Assembly: GCA_964592525.1 (NCBI GenBank)
Contig: CAZQFB010000001.1
Location: forward strand, 147,454 to 211,453
DNA: 64,000 bases
Origin: an uncultured Candidatus Saccharibacteria bacterium
Lineage (GTDB): Bacteria > Patescibacteriota > WWE3 > CAZQFB01
Direction: 5' to 3'
Made by a program: the position numbers and the translations under genes. Shown one piece after another: positions 4,778-32,774 of this stretch. Within the stretch, counting starts at the first letter, position 1. Each line of letters opens with the position of its first letter. The notes under the pieces are model-generated. The model did no database searches. It had not been told where the DNA came from and saw only the letters and a list, made by a program, of their open reading frames with translations.

Positions 4778-5932
4778 TTAGTCTAGAGGTAACTTAGGAG
4801 GTTCTTCTGCGAGCATAGGTAAAGACTCTGGCTCCTCTAGTTTGATTTTATCAAAGGTTCTAGTTAAGACCTTGGTTCTGGTAGTATCCACCTTTTCATA
4901 TTGTTCCGTTAATGCTTTTATGCGTCCGCCGATTTTAATAAATTCTTCGCTGTATTTCTCAAATTCTTTCTCAAATTCTCTGATTAAAGCAACAATCTTA
5001 TGCACATTATTCTGAATTCTAAAGTTGGCGTATGATTGTCTGATTAATCGCAATGTAGCCGAGAAACTAAAGGGACCTACGAAAACCACTTTCTTATTCA
5101 TCGCCTCGGTCCAGACGGCGTTCATTTTTTCGTAGATAAAAGAGAAAATCATCTCGTTAGGGATAAACAAGACCACAAAATCAACGGTATTTTCTTCTGG
5201 GCAAATGTAGTTTCTTGTGGTTACCTGCTTAACCTTTTCTTTAATGTCCTGCTCAAAATTTTTCAGGTACGTTTTTTTCATAGCTACGTCTTCGGTTTCA
5301 ATGTATTTTTGCAGATTGGCATAAGGGAACTTGGCATCTACGTTGATCTTGACGCCATCGGGGAGTAAGACCGTAAAATCTGGTCGGTTAAGTGAACCGT
5401 CCTGGGCTTGGTTGTAATAATAATCAACTCCTTTCACAAACCCAGCCATTTTCAAAAGATCCTCCGCCACCTGCTCACCAAATTGACCGCGGAGTTGGTT
5501 GTTGGACAGTACCTTTTTCAGGTTATCGGTGGTGACGGTTAGCTGTTCGGAAAGGCGACGTTGGTTTTCTAGCTCGGTTTTAAGTTCGCTAAAAGAACCG
5601 ATGCGTGCTTTTTCTGCTCCCTCTAAGCGTTCTGCATTTTTTTTGAGGTCGTCTTTAATATTTTTGATCAACTCTTCAATAGCGGTTTTATTACTATTAA
5701 CATTGGTATCAATCACTTGCTTTTTGGCATCAAATTTTTGATCGGCCATCGTGATCAGCTGATCAGTGGCATTCTTTAAAGCTTGGGGAAAAATCTCATT
5801 TATCTTTTGCTCAAAGATATGCTGAACACTGTCTCCAACCGAGCCAAACAACCTATTCTTGAAGATAAAAATAAGTAGACTGGCGAGCACTGACCCAGCT
5901 AGTAGACCGAGCATAAAATAAATATTGTTCAT
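4778..5932 (-). CDS. rmuC: DNA recombination protein RmuC
   Basis: N-terminal TM helix, long coiled coil, C-terminal RmuC nuclease-like domain (PDFTVLLPDGVKINVDAKFPY...); start set to ATG at 5932 (M48 of track ORF, which begins with TTG at 6073). Confidence 0.75.
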   Translation of the reverse strand: MNNIYFMLGLLAGSVLASLLIFIFKNRLFGSVGDSVQHIFEQKINEIFPQALKNATDQLITMADQKFDAKKQVIDTNVNSNKTAIEELIKNIKDDLKKNAERLEGAEKARIGSFSELKTELENQRRLSEQLTVTTDNLKKVLSNNQLRGQFGEQVAEDLLKMAGFVKGVDYYYNQAQDGSLNRPDFTVLLPDGVKINVDAKFPYANLQKYIETEDVAMKKTYLKNFEQDIKEKVKQVTTRNYICPEENTVDFVVLFIPNEMIFSFIYEKMNAVWTEAMNKKVVFVGPFSFSATLRLIRQSYANFRIQNNVHKIVALIREFEKEFEKYSEEFIKIGGRIKALTEQYEKVDTTRTKVLTRTFDKIKLEEPESLPMLAEEPPKLPLD

Positions 5933-6668: not shown

Positions 6669-6776
6669 AGGTTGATTATAATTCAGAGGGTAAATTAGAC
6701 CAACAACTAATTTAGGAAAAATAACAAACATTTAATTTTGTAGTGTGACCAGTGTAGTTCTGTTTCCATCTGGTTA

Positions 6777-7637
6777 TTGTTAGAATTAGTGGAAATGTTA
6801 TTAGCCATATTTTGTGTTTTTACCGCCTTTTTTATTTGGAGTTCACAGGGGTTGTTTATCAACCTTCTTGCCGTGGGTTCTGTGGGGTTGGCTTGGGCAA
6901 ACAGCGCATTAGCCCTTGGGGTGGCCATAATAATTCTTAAAAATAATGGAACCTTAAGAAAGACCTTTAAGAATTCTCGGAAATTTGTATGGGCGGTGGT
7001 ATTGTTTCAGGGATTGCATAATGTGCTGTGGTATGTAGCTTTAAAAATTACCCCCATTGGTCCCGCCAATTTTATTCATAGTATGTCGCCGCTACTCATA
7101 ATACTTTTAGCAGGTGTCCTAATAAAAGAGAAATACTCAATTTACTCCTACTTTTCGGTTCTTATTGGCGCAGTAGGTCTGCTATTTATCATTGGTAGTG
7201 ATTTAAATATGAACAAGGAATTTAACGTTGTTGGCATGGCTATCACGCTATTAACCGTGGCTCTGGTTGCTGTTTTTTCACTGGCTATTAAAAAACTAAG
7301 CGCAGAGCTTAGCTATACGCAACTAATTCTGCTTATGAGTTTAGGGCAATTCATCTTTAGTAGCCCTTGGGTATTAGCTAACCTGTCGGCGATGGCTACT
7401 AATATTCTTCCCATTACTATATTTGCTTTAATCTATGCACTACCTCCATATTATTTGATACTAAAAGGATATCGAAAATTGAAAACCGCCCATGTTTCTC
7501 TTATTGGTTATTCTGAACCTGTGTTTGCCAGCATCTGGGGGGCGCTCTTTTTGTCCCAAGCGATCACCCCACTGTTAATACTTGGTGGGTTGTTGATCTT
7601 GCTCTCTAATTACCTGGCGTTTAAGCTAGACCATTGA
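6777..7637 (+). CDS. EamA-family (DMT superfamily) transporter
   Basis: 286 aa, ~10 predicted TM helices, duplicated EamA-like halves. Confidence 0.7.
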   Translation: MLELVEMLLAIFCVFTAFFIWSSQGLFINLLAVGSVGLAWANSALALGVAIIILKNNGTLRKTFKNSRKFVWAVVLFQGLHNVLWYVALKITPIGPANFIHSMSPLLIILLAGVLIKEKYSIYSYFSVLIGAVGLLFIIGSDLNMNKEFNVVGMAITLLTVALVAVFSLAIKKLSAELSYTQLILLMSLGQFIFSSPWVLANLSAMATNILPITIFALIYALPPYYLILKGYRKLKTAHVSLIGYSEPVFASIWGALFLSQAITPLLILGGLLILLSNYLAFKLDH

Positions 7638-7790: not shown

Positions 7791-8255
7791 GTGGCGATGA
7801 GGAAAAAAATACTCTTGCTGGGTTTATTGTTGGTAGTGGGGTTGGGATATTACTTGTTTGTTCGCGAGAGAAAAGCTCCTGATGTGGTATTGCCAGAAGC
7901 ACAGGTTGAGGTAGTTATCTCACCGGAAGAGGAAACTAACGTGGCGGTGGTGGGTGAGTCGGAAGTGCTTGCGGACAACTTGGTGTTGGTGGAAGTTAAA
8001 GCCACTAACTTTGCTTATGATGTTACTACCATTAATGCTACCTTGGGGGATACTGTTAAACTGACTTTAATTAATGAGGAAGGGGTTCATGATTTGGTGT
8101 TGCCTGAATTTGGGGTTGCAGTGGAACCTTTGGAAGAGGGTGAGCAAGCGAGCGTGGAGTGGGTGGCTGCTAAACCAGGTGAGTTTGAATATTATTGTAG
8201 TGTGGGCAACCACCGCGAGCTGGGAATGGTGGGGACTTTAGTGGTAAGCGAGTAG
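7791..8255 (+). CDS. cupredoxin-domain (blue copper) protein, membrane-anchored
   Basis: N-terminal TM/signal; C-term EYYCSVGNHRELGMVGTLVV with H..C..H..M copper ligand spacing typical of plastocyanin-like domains. Confidence 0.55.
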   Translation: MAMRKKILLLGLLLVVGLGYYLFVRERKAPDVVLPEAQVEVVISPEEETNVAVVGESEVLADNLVLVEVKATNFAYDVTTINATLGDTVKLTLINEEGVHDLVLPEFGVAVEPLEEGEQASVEWVAAKPGEFEYYCSVGNHRELGMVGTLVVSE

Positions 8256-24331: not shown

Positions 24332-26938
24332 ATGGTTGCTGATGCTCTCTTAACCCCAATGATGAAACAGTATCTTTCGCTTAAGAAAGAATACGATGAT
24401 TGTATCCTCTTTTTCCGGATGGGTGATTTTTACGAGATGTTTCTGGATGATGCCAAGATAGCCTCTCAAGTGCTGGATATTACCCTGACAGCTAGAGATA
24501 AAAAGAAACAAATTCCTATGGCGGGCGTGCCCTATCACGCAGTTGATTCGTATTTAGCTAAGATGGTGGGAGCTGGGTATAAAGTAGCGATTTGTGAGCA
24601 AGTGACAGAGCCTGGTTCGGGTCTGGTGGCTCGGGATGTTGTGCGCGTGGTCACTCCGGGTACTGTGCTGGACGAAAAATCTCTGGACAAAGGCAAGAAT
24701 AACTATGTCTTAAGCCTAAGCTTGAAGACAAAAAAAAATATCGGTTTTGCTTTAGCGGATGTTTCTACGGGTAAGTTTTTGGTGGCTGAATATCCTTTAA
24801 CTAATCTTGCCGGTCAGTTAGCAGATGAGCTGGTCAGATTCTCTCCCAGAGAATGCATTTTAAGTGAATCATCCTACGCTGATCCGGTTCTGCTTAGAGA
24901 ATTACGCCAGTTTCGTCATTTAAATATTTATTGTTTTCACTCTTGGGAGCAGTATGCTTCTTGTGCGCAGCAAGTGCTTAAAGAGCATTTTAAGGTCACT
25001 AGTTTACGTGGTTTGGGCATAACAGGTGCGGAAGAAATGGCAGCAGCAGCAACACTTTTGGGGTACCTGCAACAAACACAAAAAAGCCAACTGTCTCATC
25101 TCAAAACGATTTCTTCTGCCCGGAAAGAAAACCATTTAGTGATGGATCGTTCCACAATTTTAAATCTTGAGCTTTTTGCCACAATCCGGGAAGGGGACAA
25201 AAGGGGCTCGTTACTTGAGGTTTTGGATGATACTAAAACTGCCATGGGTAGTCGCTTACTTAGAGAATGGGTGTTAGCTCCGTTGATTGAGCTGGCAGAA
25301 ATTAACAAGCGCTTAGAGGCGACGCAATATTTGGTGACTAACCGTCAAGTGCGAGGTGAATTACGCGAGCTCTTAACGGGAATCCTTGATTTGGAAAGAT
25401 TGCTGGCGAGATTGTCTGCTGGTTTGGGTTCAGCTCGTGAGCTGATCACCCTTAAACGCTCTTTGCGTAATGGGCTACAGCTTAGAGAAATTCTGCCCGT
25501 GGCTAGTCAGGAAGTAGTTATTTTAGCGTCTCTGTTTCCCCAAACAGTGATCACTTCCGCGACCAAACTACTGGCTAAGTTACAGGATCAGCTTGTTGAA
25601 GAACCTCCTTTGGAGGTGCGGGTAGGGGGTATGTTTAAGCAAGGCGTTAATCCTGAATTGGATGGGTTGTTAACTCAATTAGAAGGTGGTACCTCTTTTT
25701 TAACTGCTTACGAAGAAACGGAAAGAAAAAGAACGGGTATTAATTCTCTTAAGGTTAGGTATAACCAGGTTTTTGGGTATTACCTTGAAGTGAGTAAAGC
25801 TAATCTGCCCCAGGTCCCAACAGATTATCTTCGCAAACAGACTTTAGTTAATGCCGAAAGATTTATCACGCCCCAACTAAAAGAGTACGAAGAGCAGATT
25901 TTAACGGCTAAAGAAAAAAGGAGTGCCTTAGAATACCAGCTTTGGTTAGAGCTGGTGAAGGAGGTCTTAGCGGAACTTGATAATTTGCAGTACTTGGCAC
26001 GGTCAATCGCGACCATTGATTGTTTTGCGGCTTTGGCGCAAGTAGCGGAAGTTAATAGGTATGTTCGTCCTGAACTGTTTCCATCAGGAGAGCTGATCAT
26101 TAGGCAAGGTCGCCACCCGGTAGTGGAAAAATTACTTAACGAAGAAACTTTTGTGCCCAACGATGTTCAGTTTATTCCTAAAGAACGTGACTTAATTTTG
26201 TTGACTGGTCCGAATATGGCGGGTAAATCTGTTTATATGCGCCAGGTGGCTTTGATTGTGTTGTTAGCGCAAATGGGTAGTTTTGTGCCGGCAAACGAAG
26301 CCCGCTTACCTTTGACGGATAAGTTATTTGTGCGCAGTGGTGCTAGTGATCTGATTACCGCTAATTTGTCTACTTTTATGGTGGAAATGCTGGAAACTGC
26401 TCATATTTTGCACCATGCCACCTCCCGAAGCCTGGTGCTACTTGATGAGATTGGTCGCGGTACTAGTACCTATGATGGTTTGAGTTTGGCTTGGGCAGTG
26501 GTGGAATATTTAGCGTCTCTTTCAGAAGGTTGCCCCCGCACTATTTTTGCTACTCATTACCATGAATTACAGGTTTTAGCCGAGCGCTTAAGTGGGGTGG
26601 TGAAAGCGCAAGTCTTGGTTGAGGAAGATACTGCCGGTTTACGCTTTTTGCATACTGTGGTTGCTGGAGGGGCTTCCCATAGTTACGGTTTAGCGGTGGC
26701 TTCCTTAGCTGGCATCCCTGAAGCAGTAATCCAAAGAGCATTAGCGGTCTTGGCGGTTTTGGAAGCGAAAGAACAGACTCGCCCGGGTGAGGTGGCGGTA
26801 GTGCCTTATGCCCAGCAATTAAGCCTAATTTCCGAACAACCGCATCCAGTGTTGGACTTATTAAGAGCCTTGGACCTGGACCAGCTTACACCTTTAGAGG
26901 CACTGCAGAAATTGCATGACTTGAAAAATCAGTTGTGA
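24332..26938 (+). CDS. mutS: DNA mismatch repair protein MutS
   Basis: [31 protein letters not shown]-term, Walker A GPNMAGKS, 868 aa. Confidence 0.95.
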
Positions 26939-28698
26939 GCGAGAGAGGTGCTATACTCCTGAATATGGAAGGTCAAATCAGGAAATTACCCGACGAAGTG
27001 ATCACTCAAATTGCCGCTGGAGAGGTGGTGGAAAGACCGGCTTCAATTGTCAAAGAATTGGTTGAAAACGCGCTGGATGCTGAAGCGACCGAGATTATGG
27101 TGAGCGTTGTTGAGGGTGGTATTAAAGGTATCAGAGTGCAAGATAACGGGGTGGGGATGAATGACCTGGATTTACAAAGGTGTGTTTTAGCTCATACGAC
27201 CAGTAAGATCAACGTTTTTGAGGATTTGGTTAACCTTAATTCTTTTGGTTTTAGAGGGGAAGCTTTGGCGGCGATTGCGGCGGTGAGTAAATTTACTATT
27301 GCTAGTCGGCAAAACCATAAGCCGATGGGATATGCCTTGGAAGTTGTTTATGGCACTTGCGGTAAAATCCAGTCCATGGGAATGTCCTGCGGTACTTTGG
27401 TTACGGTGGAAAATCTATTTAGCACCATTCCCGCGCGACAAAAATTTTTAAAATCAGCCGTGACCGAATTTAACCATATTCTTGAAGTAGTAGCCTCAAT
27501 GGCGATTTTATTTCCGGAAAAAAGTTTCACCTTAAAACATAATGGCAAGGTAGCTTTATCTTACCCTAAAAGTGCCCAGCTGTCGGAAAGATTAGCCTTA
27601 GTGCTTGGGCAAAACACGGCGGAGAAAATGATTACGGTGGGCAGCGAATCGCCGTATTTAACCGTGACTGGGGTAGTCTCTCGACCAGAGCTGTCTACCA
27701 GTAGAGCCGATAAACAATTTTTATACGTTAATGGGCGTAGAATCACCGATCATTACTTGAGTGCTGCCATTAAAAGAGCTTACGGTACTCTGTTAATGCC
27801 ACGTTCTTACCCGTTGTATGCTCTATTTATTAACCTGCCTTCGGAAATGGTAGATATTAACGTTCATCCGCGAAAAAGTGAGGTGGCTTTTGTTAACAAA
27901 GGCGCCGTATTTCAGTTTTTAAAACAAGCGGTAGCGAAGGGTTTAGTGCAGGTAGATTTAACTTACGGTCGGTACCCAAGCGAGCCAGTGGCTAGTAATT
28001 TTGTTAGGCAAACGGAGGTCTTCGCTTTGCGGAGGACACCAACTATTTCCCACCCCTCTTTAGCGGCGGTGGCTGAAGCGGTCAAATGGCAACAACCCCT
28101 AATATCTTCTGTGGTTAAGCAAACGATTGCGGAAGAAGTCTGGCAGCTTGAGTTATGTTATTTGGTGACGTTGTCGTCGCAAGGTTTGTTGATTGTTGAT
28201 CAGCATGCTGCGCATGAGCGAGTGTTATACGAAAAGTTGTGGCGTGAGTTTAACGAGCAAAAAAAGCAGGGTCGCTCACAAAAACTTTTAGTACCACTTG
28301 AATTGAAGTTGACGGTACCTCAAGAAGAAGCTTTAACAGAACAGCTAACCATTTTGGCAAAAATTGGGTTTCTCTTTTCCGAAACGAAACCTCTGCACGT
28401 AGTTGGTGTACCAGTGTTTTTGGTCGGACGTGATATTTATGCCATTATTCACGAAGTCCTGGACGATATCTTAAACGATTCGCCAGCCGAGATTGATAAC
28501 CAGAGTTTGAGGATACTAACTTATCTTTCTTGTCGGGGCGCGGTTAAGAAAGGGGATTACCTTTCGCCAGAGGAGAGGCAAGCGCTGTTGCGTGAGTTGT
28601 GGCAGTGTGAGAGTGCCTATACCTGTCCTCACGGTAGACCAGTGAGCATTGATCTAGCAATAAAAGATCTTGAAAAGATGTTCAAGAGAGTTATTTGA
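26935..28698 (+). CDS. mutL: DNA mismatch repair protein MutL
   Basis: [39 protein letters not shown] ATPase N-term; GTG start overlapping mutS stop (alternative ATG at 26965). Confidence 0.9.
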
Positions 28699-28775
28699 CT
28701 TAATTACCCCATAGTATTATACTCTGGTGGGCAAATGAAAACATCTGAGATTGATGGTGGTGCTCTGTTTCTAAG

Positions 28776-29678
28776 GTGTTAGGAGCAGTGTGTCGTCCTC
28801 AATTGATAGTTGAGGCCATCGCCTTGAAGTCGGTGGAATTCTACGACGCACTTGAAAAGGAGCAGAAGGTGACAAAGTCAGTGGTAGTAACGGAGGATCT
28901 AAGGAGAGCCTTTGCTCAGCTAAACGAGGTGCAAAAGAGGCTTCTCAATGGAGCGCTAAGACCACTTGATGTCCGAGATCCCCTGCAAGCAATCATCGAG
29001 GGTAGGATGATTGTGCTCGATCGCTTTGCTCTCTTTAGTGAGCTTCTGCTGAGCCCGGCTGATCAGCTGGAGCGTCTCCGAGCATATGACGAGAAATACT
29101 GGGGAGGTGCAATCTGCGAGGAGCTAAAGGGTTTTCAGTTACCCGATGTAGGTCTTCACCCGCAAAGGGTGAAGGATTTGCGGGTTCTTCATGTGGAATT
29201 TGGCTCTCCGGGAGAGACCCTGGAGAGGTGGTGGCAGGTGATCTCAGCTACCCAGCCCGGGTCTTGGCGATCGGGAGATCTCCAGAGTGATTCTGCTCAT
29301 CTGGGTCTCCACAGCCAGGCACGCCACTACCCTCCAGGAATCCATGTGGTTCGCCTAGACCTGGCGGCCCATTGGGAGCCGGAAGCGGGGAGAACCCTGG
29401 TGGATGTATACGCTAGGGTTAGGGAAGCTGGGGAGAAGCTTGCCCATGGTGAGATTCTCTCGGCCTGTGGGCTCCATCCTGATCTGGTAAGGGAGATGGA
29501 TGGAGAGAATCTGCCTTTCGTGGATCTGGCAGGGTATCAGGTATTAATGCCTGGTTTACCGACCTGTCGGGCTGTTCCGTGTCTTTACTGGGATAGCCTC
29601 AGAGGCAAGGTCGCCCTCGACGTCGACTCCATTGACTATTTCCTTCCCTCTTGGGCGGCTCCGGTGCTCAGGGAGTAA
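28776..29678 (+). CDS. DGR target (variable) protein; no recognised domain, GC-rich, VR encodes last ~43 aa
   Basis: 300 aa, GTG start; roughly 57% GC; 3' 127 nt form the VR; no obvious signal peptide or TM. Confidence 0.7.
   Translation: MLGAVCRPQLIVEAIALKSVEFYDALEKEQKVTKSVVVTEDLRRAFAQLNEVQKRLLNGALRPLDVRDPLQAIIEGRMIVLDRFALFSELLLSPADQLERLRAYDEKYWGGAICEELKGFQLPDVGLHPQRVKDLRVLHVEFGSPGETLERWWQVISATQPGSWRSGDLQSDSAHLGLHSQARHYPPGIHVVRLDLAAHWEPEAGRTLVDVYARVREAGEKLAHGEILSACGLHPDLVREMDGENLPFVDLAGYQVLMPGLPTCRAVPCLYWDSLRGKVALDVDSIDYFLPSWAAPVLRE
29548..29674 (+). repeat. DGR variable repeat (VR)
   Basis: 127 nt aligned to 30140-30266 with 18 mismatches, every one at a position that is A in the downstream copy; 3' 27 nt (ttgggcggctccggtgctcaggga) identical and GC-rich (IMH-like). 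Confidence 0.85.
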
Positions 29679-30139
29679 GTACTCCTACTTAGGGTCTTAG
29701 GGCTTTTGGTGATAAGTCCTTGGACCTTTGTTTGAGAGAAAGAGAAGGGGTGTCTTCTGAAATCTGCTTGCAGATTATGGAGGCACCCCTCTTTGTTTTA
29801 TCAATAGGCGAAATTATATATTTTGTTTCCCCTCGGCAGGTAATAAAATCTACGCTCTACGGTACATCGAGGATATGGGTGGTTTGTATAAATCATATTG
29901 AGATATAATTCCCTTCGGATGGTAGGTTAATGAACCCTGATTTAAGGATTGGGGAACACCGAGATCTCTCTTTTCGCAACAACTAGCGGAATCAAATTTA
30001 AGACATTAATTTTGAGTGTCTAGAGCGAATAACGAGCACTCCTTGCTGTCTACTGGGGATGGTCAATAGGTCCCGAATGAGATTCAGGAGTTGGATGCGT
30101 CTGGCTCCAGTGGTGTAGAAGGTAGATAGCATATACCGG

Positions 30140-30266
30140 TGCCTGGTTTACCGACCTGTCGGGCTGTTCCGTATCTTAACTGGAATAGAATCAAAAGCAA
30201 GGTCAACCTCAACGTCAACTCAATTGACAATTTCAATCACAATTGGGCGGCTCCGGTGCTCAGGGA
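30140..30266 (+). repeat. DGR template repeat (TR)
   Basis: Same orientation as VR; in the target reading frame the variable sites fall on first/second positions of AAC/AAT codons (N->Y,D,A,D,D,Y,L,S etc.). Confidence 0.85.
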
Positions 30267-30280
30267 CTGCTTGTTAATAA

Positions 30281-30311
30281 AAGAAGGACGATAAGTCCTT
30301 CTTTTGTTTGC
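30281..30311 (+). terminator. Rho-independent terminator immediately after TR
   Basis: stem aagaaggac/gtccttctt, loop gataa, followed by TTTTGTTTG. Confidence 0.6.
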
Positions 30312-30387
30312 TGTTAGTAGCAACATAATTTCAGTGCGATCGCTTAGCAGTAATGTTGTTAATGTAATGAAATAGCTGGTAGTCTCT

Positions 30388-30756
30388 TTAGCTGACCGAA
30401 CGCAACCATCCGCCTAACATCTTACCAATTGTAATAAGTTGTGCTTCCAGTTCTAGGTAATGCTTGTTTGATAAACACTGACAATCCTTACCCATGCGGA
30501 TGAGAAGTCGCAGGAGATCGAGTTCACTTGAGGCTTGTTGCAGATAAGTTTTTTTTAGCTTGCCATCTGAGGAGTTAGCTGTTCTTATTGTAAGCCTTAA
30601 TATTTCTAAAGTTTGGTTTTGGGCGGTTGCTCCCAGGGTATATCTTTGATGTTTGGGAAATTTAACTAACTGCACATGGAGATGTTTGTACAATTCATAA
30701 AGATTATGAACGATTGGTATATCGTGTGGTTTCGTAGGGTTAGATTTTGTAATCAT
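30388..30756 (-). CDS. avd: DGR accessory variability determinant (Avd)-like four-helix-bundle protein
   Basis: 122 aa; FPKHQRYTLGATAQNQ...LIRMGKDCQCLSNKHYLELEAQLITIGKMLGGWLRS resembles the four-helix-bundle/Avd family (BPP-1 Avd ...VLIAEVGRILGSWIARV). Confidence 0.75.
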   Translation of the reverse strand: MITKSNPTKPHDIPIVHNLYELYKHLHVQLVKFPKHQRYTLGATAQNQTLEILRLTIRTANSSDGKLKKTYLQQASSELDLLRLLIRMGKDCQCLSNKHYLELEAQLITIGKMLGGWLRSVS

Positions 30757-30762
30757 TAGGTG

Positions 30763-31749
30763 ATGAGTGTAGCAACTTTTTACAAAATATGCTCTCCTAA
30801 GTGGTTGTTTGAATCATGGGATACATTTAGAAAGGGAAAGAGGAAAAGACTTGAGGTGATGCTCTACGAGCGGAATTTGGAAAGGAACATCTTTTGCTTG
30901 AGTGGAAATCTTTTGTCTAAGAAATATAAGCATGGTGTCTACGAGCAATTTAAGGTCACTGATCCTAAATTGCGGAGAATAAGTAAAGCATGCGTACAGG
31001 ATCGTTTGGTTCATCAAGCTGTGGTTTCTGGTATTGAGTCCTCCTTCGAGAAGAGGTTTATTTATGACAGCTACTCCTGCAGGAGTGGCAAAGGCACTCA
31101 TGCGGCTGTTGCTAGGTTGCGAAGTTTTCTGGGGAAAGAAAGTCGGAATAATACTCGGACAACCTATGTTCTTAAATGTGACGTTAAAAGATTTTTCGAT
31201 TGCTTGGATCATGGTATTTTGATGGCTCTAATTAATAGGGTGGTTAAAGATAGTGATACCCTATGGCTGATAGAGGAAATTGTAGATAGTTTTTCTATCT
31301 TTCCTGGTAAAGGTGTTCCTCTTGGTAATCTCACAAGCCAGTTATTTGCCAATATTTATTTACATGAGCTGGATCGGTTCATAAAAAATGATTTGGGGAT
31401 TAAGTATTACGTTCGCTACTGTGACGATTTTGTAATTGTTGACAGTGATTCCAGGTATCTTCAGGGGTTGATCCCTATTCTAGAGGGTTTCTTAAGAAAT
31501 TATCTCAATCTCTGTCTGCATCCTAATAAGATTACCTTACGTACCTGGAATAGCGGGATGGATTTTCTGGGGTATATCCTAAAGCCTGATTGTACATTAC
31601 TCAGGACCAAGACAAAGAATCGTGCATTAAGACGGGTGAATAGCAATAATCTGCCTTCATATCTTGGTATTTGTTCTCACTGTGACTCGTTTGAGCTTCA
31701 ACAGATTCTCAAGTGTAAAGCTGGTAGTCTAGCACGAGAGGGGTCTTAG
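30763..31749 (+). CDS. DGR-type reverse transcriptase
   Basis: RT motifs 1-7 present: PKLRRISKACVQDRLVHQA, SYSCRSGKGTHAAV, YVLKCDVKRFFDCLDH, GVPLGNLTSQLFANIYLHELD (SQ variant of motif 4 typical of DGR RTs), YVRYCDDFVIV, LCLHPNKI, FLGY; no maturase/endonuclease domain. Confidence 0.85.
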   Translation: MSVATFYKICSPKWLFESWDTFRKGKRKRLEVMLYERNLERNIFCLSGNLLSKKYKHGVYEQFKVTDPKLRRISKACVQDRLVHQAVVSGIESSFEKRFIYDSYSCRSGKGTHAAVARLRSFLGKESRNNTRTTYVLKCDVKRFFDCLDHGILMALINRVVKDSDTLWLIEEIVDSFSIFPGKGVPLGNLTSQLFANIYLHELDRFIKNDLGIKYYVRYCDDFVIVDSDSRYLQGLIPILEGFLRNYLNLCLHPNKITLRTWNSGMDFLGYILKPDCTLLRTKTKNRALRRVNSNNLPSYLGICSHCDSFELQQILKCKAGSLAREGS

Positions 31750-31862
31750 CTAGTTAGGGAGACTTTTTAAGAGATAGACTATCGGGCATATAGCTAACTT
31801 TGCTACAATATACAGTAGCTAATCAGTTACTTATTATTAGTTACTGGTTAATAATTATTAAT

Positions 31863-32774
31863 ATGCCTGTCCAGCAATTATTCTTGCCTCATCAACAATC
31901 GGGTACCCGTGCCCATGCTATTTCCCCCTTAGCTTTTACTTTGTATATCGCTTTTGTGTTGGTGTCGATTATTTCCTTCCAAATATTGGCTAAAGAAGCG
32001 GGTTTGGTGCTTGGTTATGCGACAGACATCCACGAACAAGAAATTGTGTCGCTGACTAACCAACAAAGAAGGGCTGAAGGTTTAAACGAATTGACCTACA
32101 GTGAGGAGTTGGCTAAAGCGGCTCAATTAAAGGCAGAAAGCATGTTTACGCTTGATTATTGGGCTCATATCGCTCCAAATGGTACTACGCCTTGGGTGTT
32201 TATTGAACAAGCGGGTTATGATTTTTATGCGGCGGGAGAGAACTTGGCGAGGGATTTTAATGATTCAGAATCGGTAGTTAAGGCTTGGATGAAATCGCCC
32301 TCACATGCCGAAAACATTTTGGGATCACTTTATGCTGATATTGGGGTAGCAGTGGTTAATGGTGAGTTAGCTGGCAGCGAAACCACTTTAGTGGTACAGA
32401 TGTTTGGGATTACCAGAGGCAGTACGGTTGCGCCACCGTCTCCACAACCTCCGGTGCAGGTTAGTCCGGAAGCGGTGTCGGTCAATGTTGGTGAAAACCC
32501 AGCTGCGCTGGAAGCGGAAATACCAGCACCCGTGGAAATTACCGAACCAGCCTTGGCGGTTGAGCCAGTACAGACTGGTTATCAGCTTGGTGAAGCGACC
32601 AAAGCGATCTCACTGGGCTTTGCCTTCTTTTTACTGATTTTGTTTGTGCTCGATTTACTGTTAATCACCAAAAAGGGGATTGTGCGCGTTTCAGGTAATA
32701 CCTTGGCTCATGTGAGTATGCTCCTTTTTATTATCGGTGCTTTGTGGTGGATTAACGGGGGTTCTGTTTTATGA
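31863..32774 (+). CDS. CAP/SCP/PR1-like domain protein, membrane-anchored, with P/A/E-rich linker and C-terminal TM
   Basis: LTNQQRRAEGLNELTYSEELAKAAQLKAESMF...HIAPNG...GENLARDF...WMKSPSHAENIL matches the CAP domain; start at ATG 31863. Confidence 0.65.
   Translation: MPVQQLFLPHQQSGTRAHAISPLAFTLYIAFVLVSIISFQILAKEAGLVLGYATDIHEQEIVSLTNQQRRAEGLNELTYSEELAKAAQLKAESMFTLDYWAHIAPNGTTPWVFIEQAGYDFYAAGENLARDFNDSESVVKAWMKSPSHAENILGSLYADIGVAVVNGELAGSETTLVVQMFGITRGSTVAPPSPQPPVQVSPEAVSVNVGENPAALEAEIPAPVEITEPALAVEPVQTGYQLGEATKAISLGFAFFLLILFVLDLLLITKKGIVRVSGNTLAHVSMLLFIIGALWWINGGSVL

Follow-up and report, generated by a model that had tools for sequence, protein, structure and literature searches.

Diversity-generating retroelements (DGRs) of the candidate phyla radiation (CPR) have already been catalogued in their thousands. 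In the set of Wu et al. 2018, 90% of them showed architecture B3, TR-(avd)-RT, in which the template repeat (TR) lies upstream of a reverse-strand avd gene that is followed by a forward-strand reverse transcriptase (RT) gene (PMC5758913), and Roux et al. 2021 delimited a CPR-restricted DGR clade 2 whose targets are without recognisable domains (PMC8144416). The locus described here lies in a stretch of 64,000 nt from an uncultured Candidatus Saccharibacteria bacterium (contig CAZQFB010000001.1 of assembly GCA_964592525.1, positions 147,454 to 211,453), which is called the window and whose numbering is used throughout. The segment 28788-31749 is, with high confidence, a complete chromosomal DGR of the CPR/Patescibacteria type with architecture B3. 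Since both the B3 layout and the CPR-restricted clade have been described, the element is not novel as a system and adds one further intact example to a known kind. Of greatest interest is instead the arrangement of a structured leader RNA 5′ of TR, found in an element whose B3 layout dominates CPR DGRs.

The DGR RNA used for comparison here is that of Bordetella phage BPP-1, in which the functional elements, one strand excepted, all lie 3′ of TR in the segment Sp (bioRxiv 10.1101/2023.10.23.563531). Sp carries an Avd-binding stem-loop (Sp3-33), a primer strand (Sp47-56) that pairs with TR117-129 and, two nucleotides after the primer, a Stop strand (Sp59-70) that pairs with avd369-379 just 5′ of TR; next come a short stem-loop, two adenosines, the single-stranded Thumb Ring of 13 nt and a long RT-binding stem-loop (bioRxiv 10.1101/2023.10.23.563531). 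The BPP-1 coordinates used in this work reproduce Sp A56 and G57. Homing in BPP-1 also requires a hairpin/cruciform located 4-34 bp after the variable repeat (VR) (PMC3240598). Many DGRs, including those of CPR, have stem-loops just downstream of TR and upstream-downstream pairing around TR (Handa et al.). The Rfam family RF03022, Phage_DGR, corresponds to the motif that Weinberg et al. 2017 named RT-10 (PMC5737381).

The assignment as a DGR was deduced first of all from the repeats. VR and TR were returned by a repeat finder as a 127-nt direct repeat with 86% identity, and base-by-base comparison gave 18 mismatches, each with A in TR and G, C or T in VR and never the reverse. An earlier note, made by a model from the letters of this DNA, had reported two same-orientation repeats of this length with 18 adenine-only mismatches, and this was confirmed; tabulation of the aligned mismatches, one of the checks that it had proposed, revealed none at a TR position other than A. 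Of the 34 A among the 127 nt of TR, 18 are replaced in VR and 16 retained, and the chance of 18 random mismatch positions all falling on A is P = 6.8e-13. In the frame of the target gene, 16 of the 18 mismatched adenines occupy codon position 1 or 2 and two occupy position 3. Eleven of the 18 belong to AAC/AAT codons, the others to TAT, AGA, ATC, AAA, AGC, TCA and CAC, and all eight in-frame AAY codons of TR are altered in VR. The earlier statement that these adenines fall on positions 1 and 2 of AAC/AAT codons was thus accurate for most codon positions and too narrow as to codons. Following the last mismatch, the two repeats share an identical tail, TTGGGCGGCTCCGGTGCTCAGGGA, which is GC-rich as had been noted but measures 24 nt instead of 27 nt; the note had taken it as IMH-like (IMH, initiation of mutagenic homing), but by itself it is not an IMH/IMH* pair. 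The homology between VR and TR stops at GGGA, which is invariant across nine related loci. No further VR was detected within the window, where TR matched VR only.

The second line of evidence was the RT. The open reading frame (ORF) contains an RVT_1 domain (77.6 bits), and its best relative among solved structures was 8ub7_A (E 7e-38, 134 bits), the aligned sequence of which is 100% identical to brt of BPP-1; the best group II RT, GsI-IIC, scored 72 bits. The motifs GNLTSQ (residues 188-193) and YCDD (residues 219-222) were identified, with LGNLTSQLFAN aligning with IGSLTSQLFAN of Brt and YCDD with YMDD, and motif 4 has the form (I/L/V)GxxxSQ that marks RTs of the DGR clade. More than 7000 relatives were found at E<1e-40, the closest with 52-60% identity. 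Nearly all of the named sequences among the top 120 were from Saccharimonadales, Saccharibacteria, Uhrbacteria or Patescibacteria, and this match list, as distinct from a tree, indicates that the RT clusters with Patescibacteria RTs as in the CPR-restricted clade 2.

It was considered whether the locus might instead hold a retron, group II or defence-type RT beside a chance or duplicated repeat, as the top NCBIfam model by name was group_II_RT_mat and relatives are annotated 'retron-type' or 'maturase family'. The scores, however, were well below the NCBIfam cut-offs both for group II RT/maturase (133 versus 300) and for retron RTs (42 versus 235), the DRT families likewise remained below theirs, and among solved structures Brt led by about 60 bits. 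Together with the adjacent Avd and a mismatch spectrum of P ~7e-13, these data effectively refute this explanation, and the DGR-type RT with GNLTSQ proposed in the earlier note was upheld.

The ORF between TR and the RT was assigned to Avd from its match to Pfam bAvd (PF22296; 67.2 bits, cut-off 40). A point against the assignment is that the NCBIfam model DivGenRetAVD, with a cut-off of 80, returned 79.0 bits and fell 1 bit short. The sequence search of the PDB with Avd gave no match. The call of an Avd-like ORF had been made in the earlier note without its strand; the gene is on the minus strand and divergent from the RT, as is known for the CPR B3 layout, and it is likewise inverted in the related loci L001, L002, L006, L011, L013, L015 and L020. 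With adenine-only VR/TR mismatches, a Brt-like RT and an adjacent Avd, all three defining parts of a DGR are present. Their order is target gene, TR, inverted avd and RT, and the orientations of TR (+), avd (−) and RT (+) correspond to B3. The setting is chromosomal, with mutS, mutL, a CAP-domain protein and glycosyltransferases in the flanks, and a single NCBI contig of 344,256 bp carries the records of all four element proteins. The coordinates of the features are collected in Table 1.

Table 1. Features of the retroelement and its predicted RNA, in window coordinates
Feature	Coordinates	Strand	Remarks
Target (variable-protein) gene	28788..29678	+	296 aa; a GTG start at 28776 would give 300 aa
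Variable repeat (VR)	29548..29674	+	127 nt; last 43 codons of the target gene
Identical VR/TR tail	29651..29674	+	24 nt, 71% G+C; after the last mismatch
Post-VR hairpins	29676..29726	+	CTTNGG/CTYGG-rich
First post-VR hairpin	29676-29691	+	6 bp, 4-nt loop; starts 1 nt past VR
Longer nested hairpin	29692-29726	+	Conserved across loci, some compensatory changes
Terminator-like hairpin and T-run	29742..29799	+	Predicted to end target-gene transcript; inner part found by terminator scan
-10 box TATAAT of TR RNA	29904..29909	+	Consensus-level prediction; predicted start near 29917
Structured 5′ leader of TR RNA	29917..30139	+	~225 nt; from alignments and RNAalifold
P1 hairpin	29935-29954	+	UACG tetraloop conserved in 7/9 loci
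P2 hairpin	29983-30023	+	
Strand a	30030-30042	+	Pairs with a′ 30264-30276
Strand b	30043-30054	+	12 nt, directly after a; pairs with b′
P4 short hairpin	30056-30074	+	Between b and b′
Conserved A-rich single strand	30075-30086	+	12 nt, between P4 and P5
P5	30087-30108	+	UGCG tetraloop
Strand b′	30121-30132	+	Ends 7 nt 5′ of TR
Template repeat (TR)	30140..30266	+	Identical in an independent Logan assembly contig
Strand a′	30264..30276	+	GGACUGCUUGUUA; straddles the TR 3′ boundary; partner strand a ~220 nt upstream
Hairpin after TR	30276..30312	+	Inverted repeat, 14-bp arms, 5-nt loop; A-run and U-run flanks
avd accessory gene	30388..30756	−	122 aa; inverted relative to TR and RT
DGR reverse transcriptase	30763 (ATG)..31749	+	328 aa; alternative GTG start at 30760

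The claim of a complete DGR in the earlier note was therefore supported, the structured RNA upstream of TR having been overlooked. Alignment of the intergenic DNA of related loci showed that the ~250 nt 5′ of TR are conserved far better than the proteins. RNAalifold was applied to MAFFT alignments of first five and then nine loci, and both gave one structure. For the 60 pairs of this structure, 91.9% of the cells in an unfitted alignment form a standard pair compared to 36-50% with slid partners, pairs changed on both sides numbered 42 compared to 10-18, and none of 500 shuffles matched the observed pairing values. Helix a/a′, which joins the leader to the TR 3′ boundary, comprises 12 pairs, 6 of them with compensatory changes, and was 92.6% paired. 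The minimum-energy fold of the window sequence recovers the leader helices with a z of -2.8. The leader is thus well supported as a structure, and the covariation extends to the helix that it forms with the TR 3′ boundary.

The a-to-b′ core of the leader was then expressed as a covariance model, R1, which scored 107.6 bits at the window and matched once per DGR locus, on the TR strand and directly 5′ of TR. The loci outside model building gave 101 bits (L004/L009), 96 bits (L005) and 105 bits (L008), and L004, which had been held out, retains the a/a′ pairing. No R1 match was obtained elsewhere in the 210 kb searched or in BPP-1. A scan of viral contigs for the leader motif returned nothing, and in Rfam the leader was without a match, the only hit in the intergenic region being a sub-threshold chance match (Srn266, E 0.47). 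An RNA arranged in this way 5′ of TR was not described in the searchable literature, which did not include Paul et al. 2017 or the final cryo-EM paper. Two strongly conserved and apparently single-stranded blocks flank P1 at 29917-29934 and 29955-29982, with the consensus GGAGAGUAGGUUAAUGA and CCGAAAUCUCU; since no pairing partner was identified for them, they may make tertiary or protein contacts.

The leader has its own promoter-like box. The hexamers TATAAT, TATGAT or TATACT were aligned in 8/9 loci at a fixed distance to the conserved RNA, most of them with TG one base upstream. Such a box would allow the 225-nt RNA to be an independent small RNA or cis-regulatory element that merely adjoins the DGR. 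We regard this as very improbable because the RNA occurs once per locus, on the TR strand and abutting TR in 15/15 matches, and nowhere else in 210 kb, because one of its strands pairs, with covariation, with the TR 3′ boundary, and because it stays with TR in L015 despite a target on the other side and strand.

Only a′ and a hairpin with A- and U-runs are present 3′ of TR, 5-120 nt from the convergent avd stop codon, and an equivalent hairpin and U-run follow TR in 8/9 loci. The hairpin probably serves as a bidirectional terminator, for the TR RNA on one side and for the convergent avd mRNA on the other; alternatively or additionally it could be an Avd-binding stem-loop. The latter was the first reading and was downgraded, as neither sequence nor loop is conserved and the features are those of a terminator, and because P1 instead has a conserved UACG tetraloop; P1 is a candidate Avd-binding stem-loop.

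Comparison of the leader with the BPP-1 RNA suggested a correspondence. In both RNAs there is a duplex on the TR 3′ edge and an adjacent duplex 5′ of TR (at 7 nt in the window and 8 nt in BPP-1), and both have a short stem-loop, then a single strand (12 nt in the window, the 13-nt Thumb Ring in BPP-1), then a stem-loop, which in the window bears a UNCG tetraloop. They differ in that the corresponding RNA module is 5′ of TR in the window and 3′ of TR in BPP-1. The leader is plausibly an RT/Avd-binding, priming and stop module, a displaced counterpart of the BPP-1 Sp. Tentatively, and somewhat short of calling it probable, we propose that in the window and its CPR relatives the whole ribonucleoprotein (RNP)-forming RNA module lies 5′ of TR, with a candidate Avd-binding stem-loop, primer and Stop strands, a short stem-loop, a 'thumb ring' and an RT-binding stem-loop, so that the RNA would be a rearranged, effectively circularly permuted version of that of BPP-1. 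If this is true, cis-priming would occur from a leader nucleotide near C30042, ~220 nt upstream of the initiation site G30263 (G117 in BPP-1), and b/b′, as the stop duplex, would form a local helix that stops 7 nt short of TR.

Several observations weigh against this proposal. The leader helices were mapped onto the BPP-1 elements by topology and sizes only, and the nucleotide at the position equivalent to the primer is C in the window leader, not A. RF03022 matched neither window 28500-32000 nor L001, L013, L017 and L020, even at E<=1. Furthermore, the promoter and terminator that would delimit the RNA are predictions at the consensus level.

These points leave room for a real DGR in which the leader does no more than act as a scaffold or closing stem and in which the cis-primer and RT-binding RNA are elsewhere, for example on read-through RNA 3′ of TR and antisense to avd. 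This is the less likely of the two but a serious possibility. It would agree with BPP-1, where the protein-binding and priming elements are all 3′ of TR, and with the stem-loops downstream of TR and the flank pairing that Handa et al. found in many DGRs. In L006/L017 the post-TR hairpin has a 9-bp stem and a UUCG loop and so resembles an Avd-binding stem-loop. Moreover, the RT start is 3-6 nt from the avd start, and the RT may therefore need read-through from the TR promoter. Against it, related loci have only 5-52 nt between TR and the avd stop, and these are filled by the hairpin and U-run; no RF03022-like RNA was detected 3′ of TR; and it is the leader that contains the strand pairing with the TR 3′ edge as well as the strand pairing just 5′ of TR, each with covariation. 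The start codons of avd (−) and the RT (+) are divergent (window 30756-30763), and from their spacing of 3-6 nt it follows that either each promoter is inside the other gene or the RT is read through from the TR RNA across antisense avd.

In the mechanism proposed for the element, the TATAAT box, as a dedicated promoter, would drive an RNA of ~395 nt comprising the 225-nt leader, the 127-nt TR and the terminator hairpin to ~30312, its start and end being placed by sequence signals. RT and Avd would bind this RNA and copy TR into cDNA with misincorporation opposite adenines. The cDNA would then replace VR, so that up to eight AAY codons and several others in the C-type-lectin-like domain would be recoded. 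The hairpins directly 3′ of VR probably mark the recipient site.

These hairpins are followed by a terminator-like element, and similar elements of the form GAAGAAGGGG...CCCCTTCTT+T were present in the related loci. CTYGG/CTTNGG motifs numbered 3-9 per VR flank in nine loci, of which 4-8 in the first ~60 nt, compared to a background of about 0.2-0.6 per 100 nt, and none were found in the TR flank. The hairpins are candidates for the hairpin/cruciform of target recognition. The first of them in the window is A+T-rich with the loop CTCC, unlike the G+C-rich stem and GRNA loop of phage DGRs, and this counts against such a role. A CTYGG-rich hairpin array after every VR may represent a recipient-site signal unlike the phage cruciform. 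An ORF of 62 aa at 29720-29908 was considered as an accessory gene and rejected, since it matched no family, lacked conservation and lies across the hairpins and the promoter.

The target protein has a helical N-terminal part and a C-terminal alpha/beta domain, with VR at the extreme C terminus. In a confident model the C-terminal domain appears C-type-lectin-like, in a divergent form. No sequence similarity to the C-type-lectin-fold variable proteins Mtd (1yu0), TvpA (2y3c) and TaqVP (5vf4) was detectable, no Pfam FGE-sulfatase or domain-of-unknown-function (DUF) match was obtained, and Foldseek against the PDB gave nothing significant. The family comprises 388 representatives at 50% identity and is absent from Pfam, and its members in GTDB genomes are all in metagenome-assembled genomes of Candidatus Saccharibacteria. 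It may represent a surface or ligand-binding protein of episymbiotic Saccharibacteria.

Whether the element is active was judged from the window, its relatives and a paralogue. The window copy has intact ORFs and zero non-adenine VR/TR mismatches, both signs of recent activity. Eight distinct loci with these parts in matching order and strands were found (L001, L002, L006, L011, L013, L015, L017 and L020), and adenine-specific mismatches were 11/11 and 10/10 for the two VRs of L001 and 15/16, 18/20, 14/14, 16/16 and 21/21 in others. Further data came from a sister element (56% RT identity) that was recovered from three samples, L017 and L018 being the same locus in two samples. The 129-nt VRs of L017 and L018 differ at 21 positions, 20 of them TR-adenine sites, compared to 1 difference in ~5760 nt outside VR, up to position 5890. 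Since the differences are almost solely at TR-adenine sites, the DGR family was deduced to be active in nature. The window copy is probably functional on this evidence and may be active now, and the description 'active-looking' in the earlier note was reasonable.

Two results count the other way. Genome and metagenome scans gave no near-identical contig spanning the window VR. In addition, a second protein of the target family, P0002 (298 aa), is encoded on the same contig outside the window, and it agrees fully with the window target over its C-terminal ~220 aa, which take in all of VR, but differs over its N-terminal ~75 residues. P0002 is probably either a second target that this TR serves from a distance or a product of recent gene conversion or duplication. 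Because its VR is identical, either the two copies have not diverged after a recent duplication or gene conversion, or the assembly has collapsed; such identity is unexpected for an active DGR and counts against rapid ongoing divergence. The segment identical in P0002 is also the GC-rich part of the target gene: the conserved C-terminal two-thirds of the target have 55-60% G+C (window 29000-29600), Avd and RT 36-42% (window 30400-31750) and the flanks ~42-47%.

The identical VR of P0002 would suit a recently inactivated, fossil DGR, with parts intact and VR no longer diversified. So would a series of decaying relatives, from L011 (15/20 adenine-specific) through L004/L009 (63% VR/TR identity, Avd remnant) to L005 (no avd or RT). 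This explanation is nonetheless rather unlikely. The three ORFs are full length, the mismatches are 18/18 adenine-specific with zero background substitution in 127 nt, and the leader scores in the window equal those of elements with demonstrated VR variation. TR is also identical in an independent assembly, namely Logan contig L012 (SRR11845623), which spans only 30140-31079, from TR through avd into the 5′ part of the RT gene, and is identical to the window there; it breaks off precisely where TR begins, a repeat-induced assembly break. A functional DGR thus remained the preferred reading for the window copy.

Several of the related loci showed features of their own. Downstream of the DGR, the identity between L017 and L018 falls abruptly to ~74% beyond ~5897, in the region of a transglycosylase-domain gene, and this divergence forms a second variable region unrelated to TR. 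In L006 the 'TR' is 129/129 identical to VR (6759-6887 and 7994-8122) and is without the adenines of the near-identical L017 TR; either VR sequence was misassembled at the TR position or TR was overwritten. In L005 (5987-6221) the 96-bit leader directly precedes a TR-like copy; downstream of this copy is a CTYGG flank of the VR type instead of a′, and avd and RT are absent, which looks like a TR-by-VR recombination that deleted the cassette. In L004 (3297-3541, the same as L009) the 101-bit leader and the a/a′ pairing are kept beside repeats of 63% identity with mixed mismatches and a 23-aa Avd remnant; the DGR at this locus either is in decay or relies on an RT acting in trans. In L015 (3041-3167 and 4708-4834) the target follows the RT and is encoded on the other strand, with no change to the leader-TR-(avd)-RT core, from which it was deduced that the target and the RNA/enzyme core are separable modules.

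The genes mutS and mutL, at window 24332-28698, lie directly upstream of the target gene. A DGR reconstitution study had deleted mutS in the expectation that DGR-introduced substitutions would be preserved (PMC12875486). A functional role for the adjacency was rejected, and it is probably coincidental, since related DGRs have other, unrelated neighbours (rnc/rpsP, parB/clpP and hsdM).

Compared to the described CPR elements of architecture B3 (PMC5758913) and clade 2 (PMC8144416), nothing essential differs. Gene order, strands, chromosomal location and adenine-specific mismatches are the same, the target is likewise without recognisable domains, and the relatives of the RT are in Saccharimonadales, Patescibacteria and Uhrbacteria. 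Neither the target family of the window nor the conserved 5′ leader RNA was found described in the searchable literature on CPR DGRs. From the FGE-like/C-type-lectin variable proteins, the window target differs by a helical N-terminal region.

With BPP-1 (mtd-avd-TR-Sp-brt) the element shares a homologous RT with (I/L)GxLTSQLFAN and YxDD, an Avd, the targeting of AAY codons, repeats of similar length (127 nt in the window and 134 nt in BPP-1) and a VR at the C terminus of a domain that would be C-type-lectin-like. It differs in being cellular and not phage-borne, in that avd is inverted and 3′ of TR, in the extra hairpins P1 and P2 of its RNA, in that TR directly precedes the terminator, and in that the post-VR hairpins are CTYGG-rich as opposed to a single G+C-rich stem with a GRNA loop. 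The RF03022 RNA is similar to the leader in being a structured non-coding RNA beside a DGR TR with a proposed priming role. It is located 3′ of TR in BPP-1 (104.7 bits), whereas the CPR leader is on the opposite side. Should the leader be the priming, stop and RT-binding module, an RNA of ~395 nt and two small proteins could be tested in vitro and might offer an alternative scaffold for DGR-based targeted mutagenesis, and the RNP logic of the Bordetella phage would be conserved in these CPR elements but rearranged.

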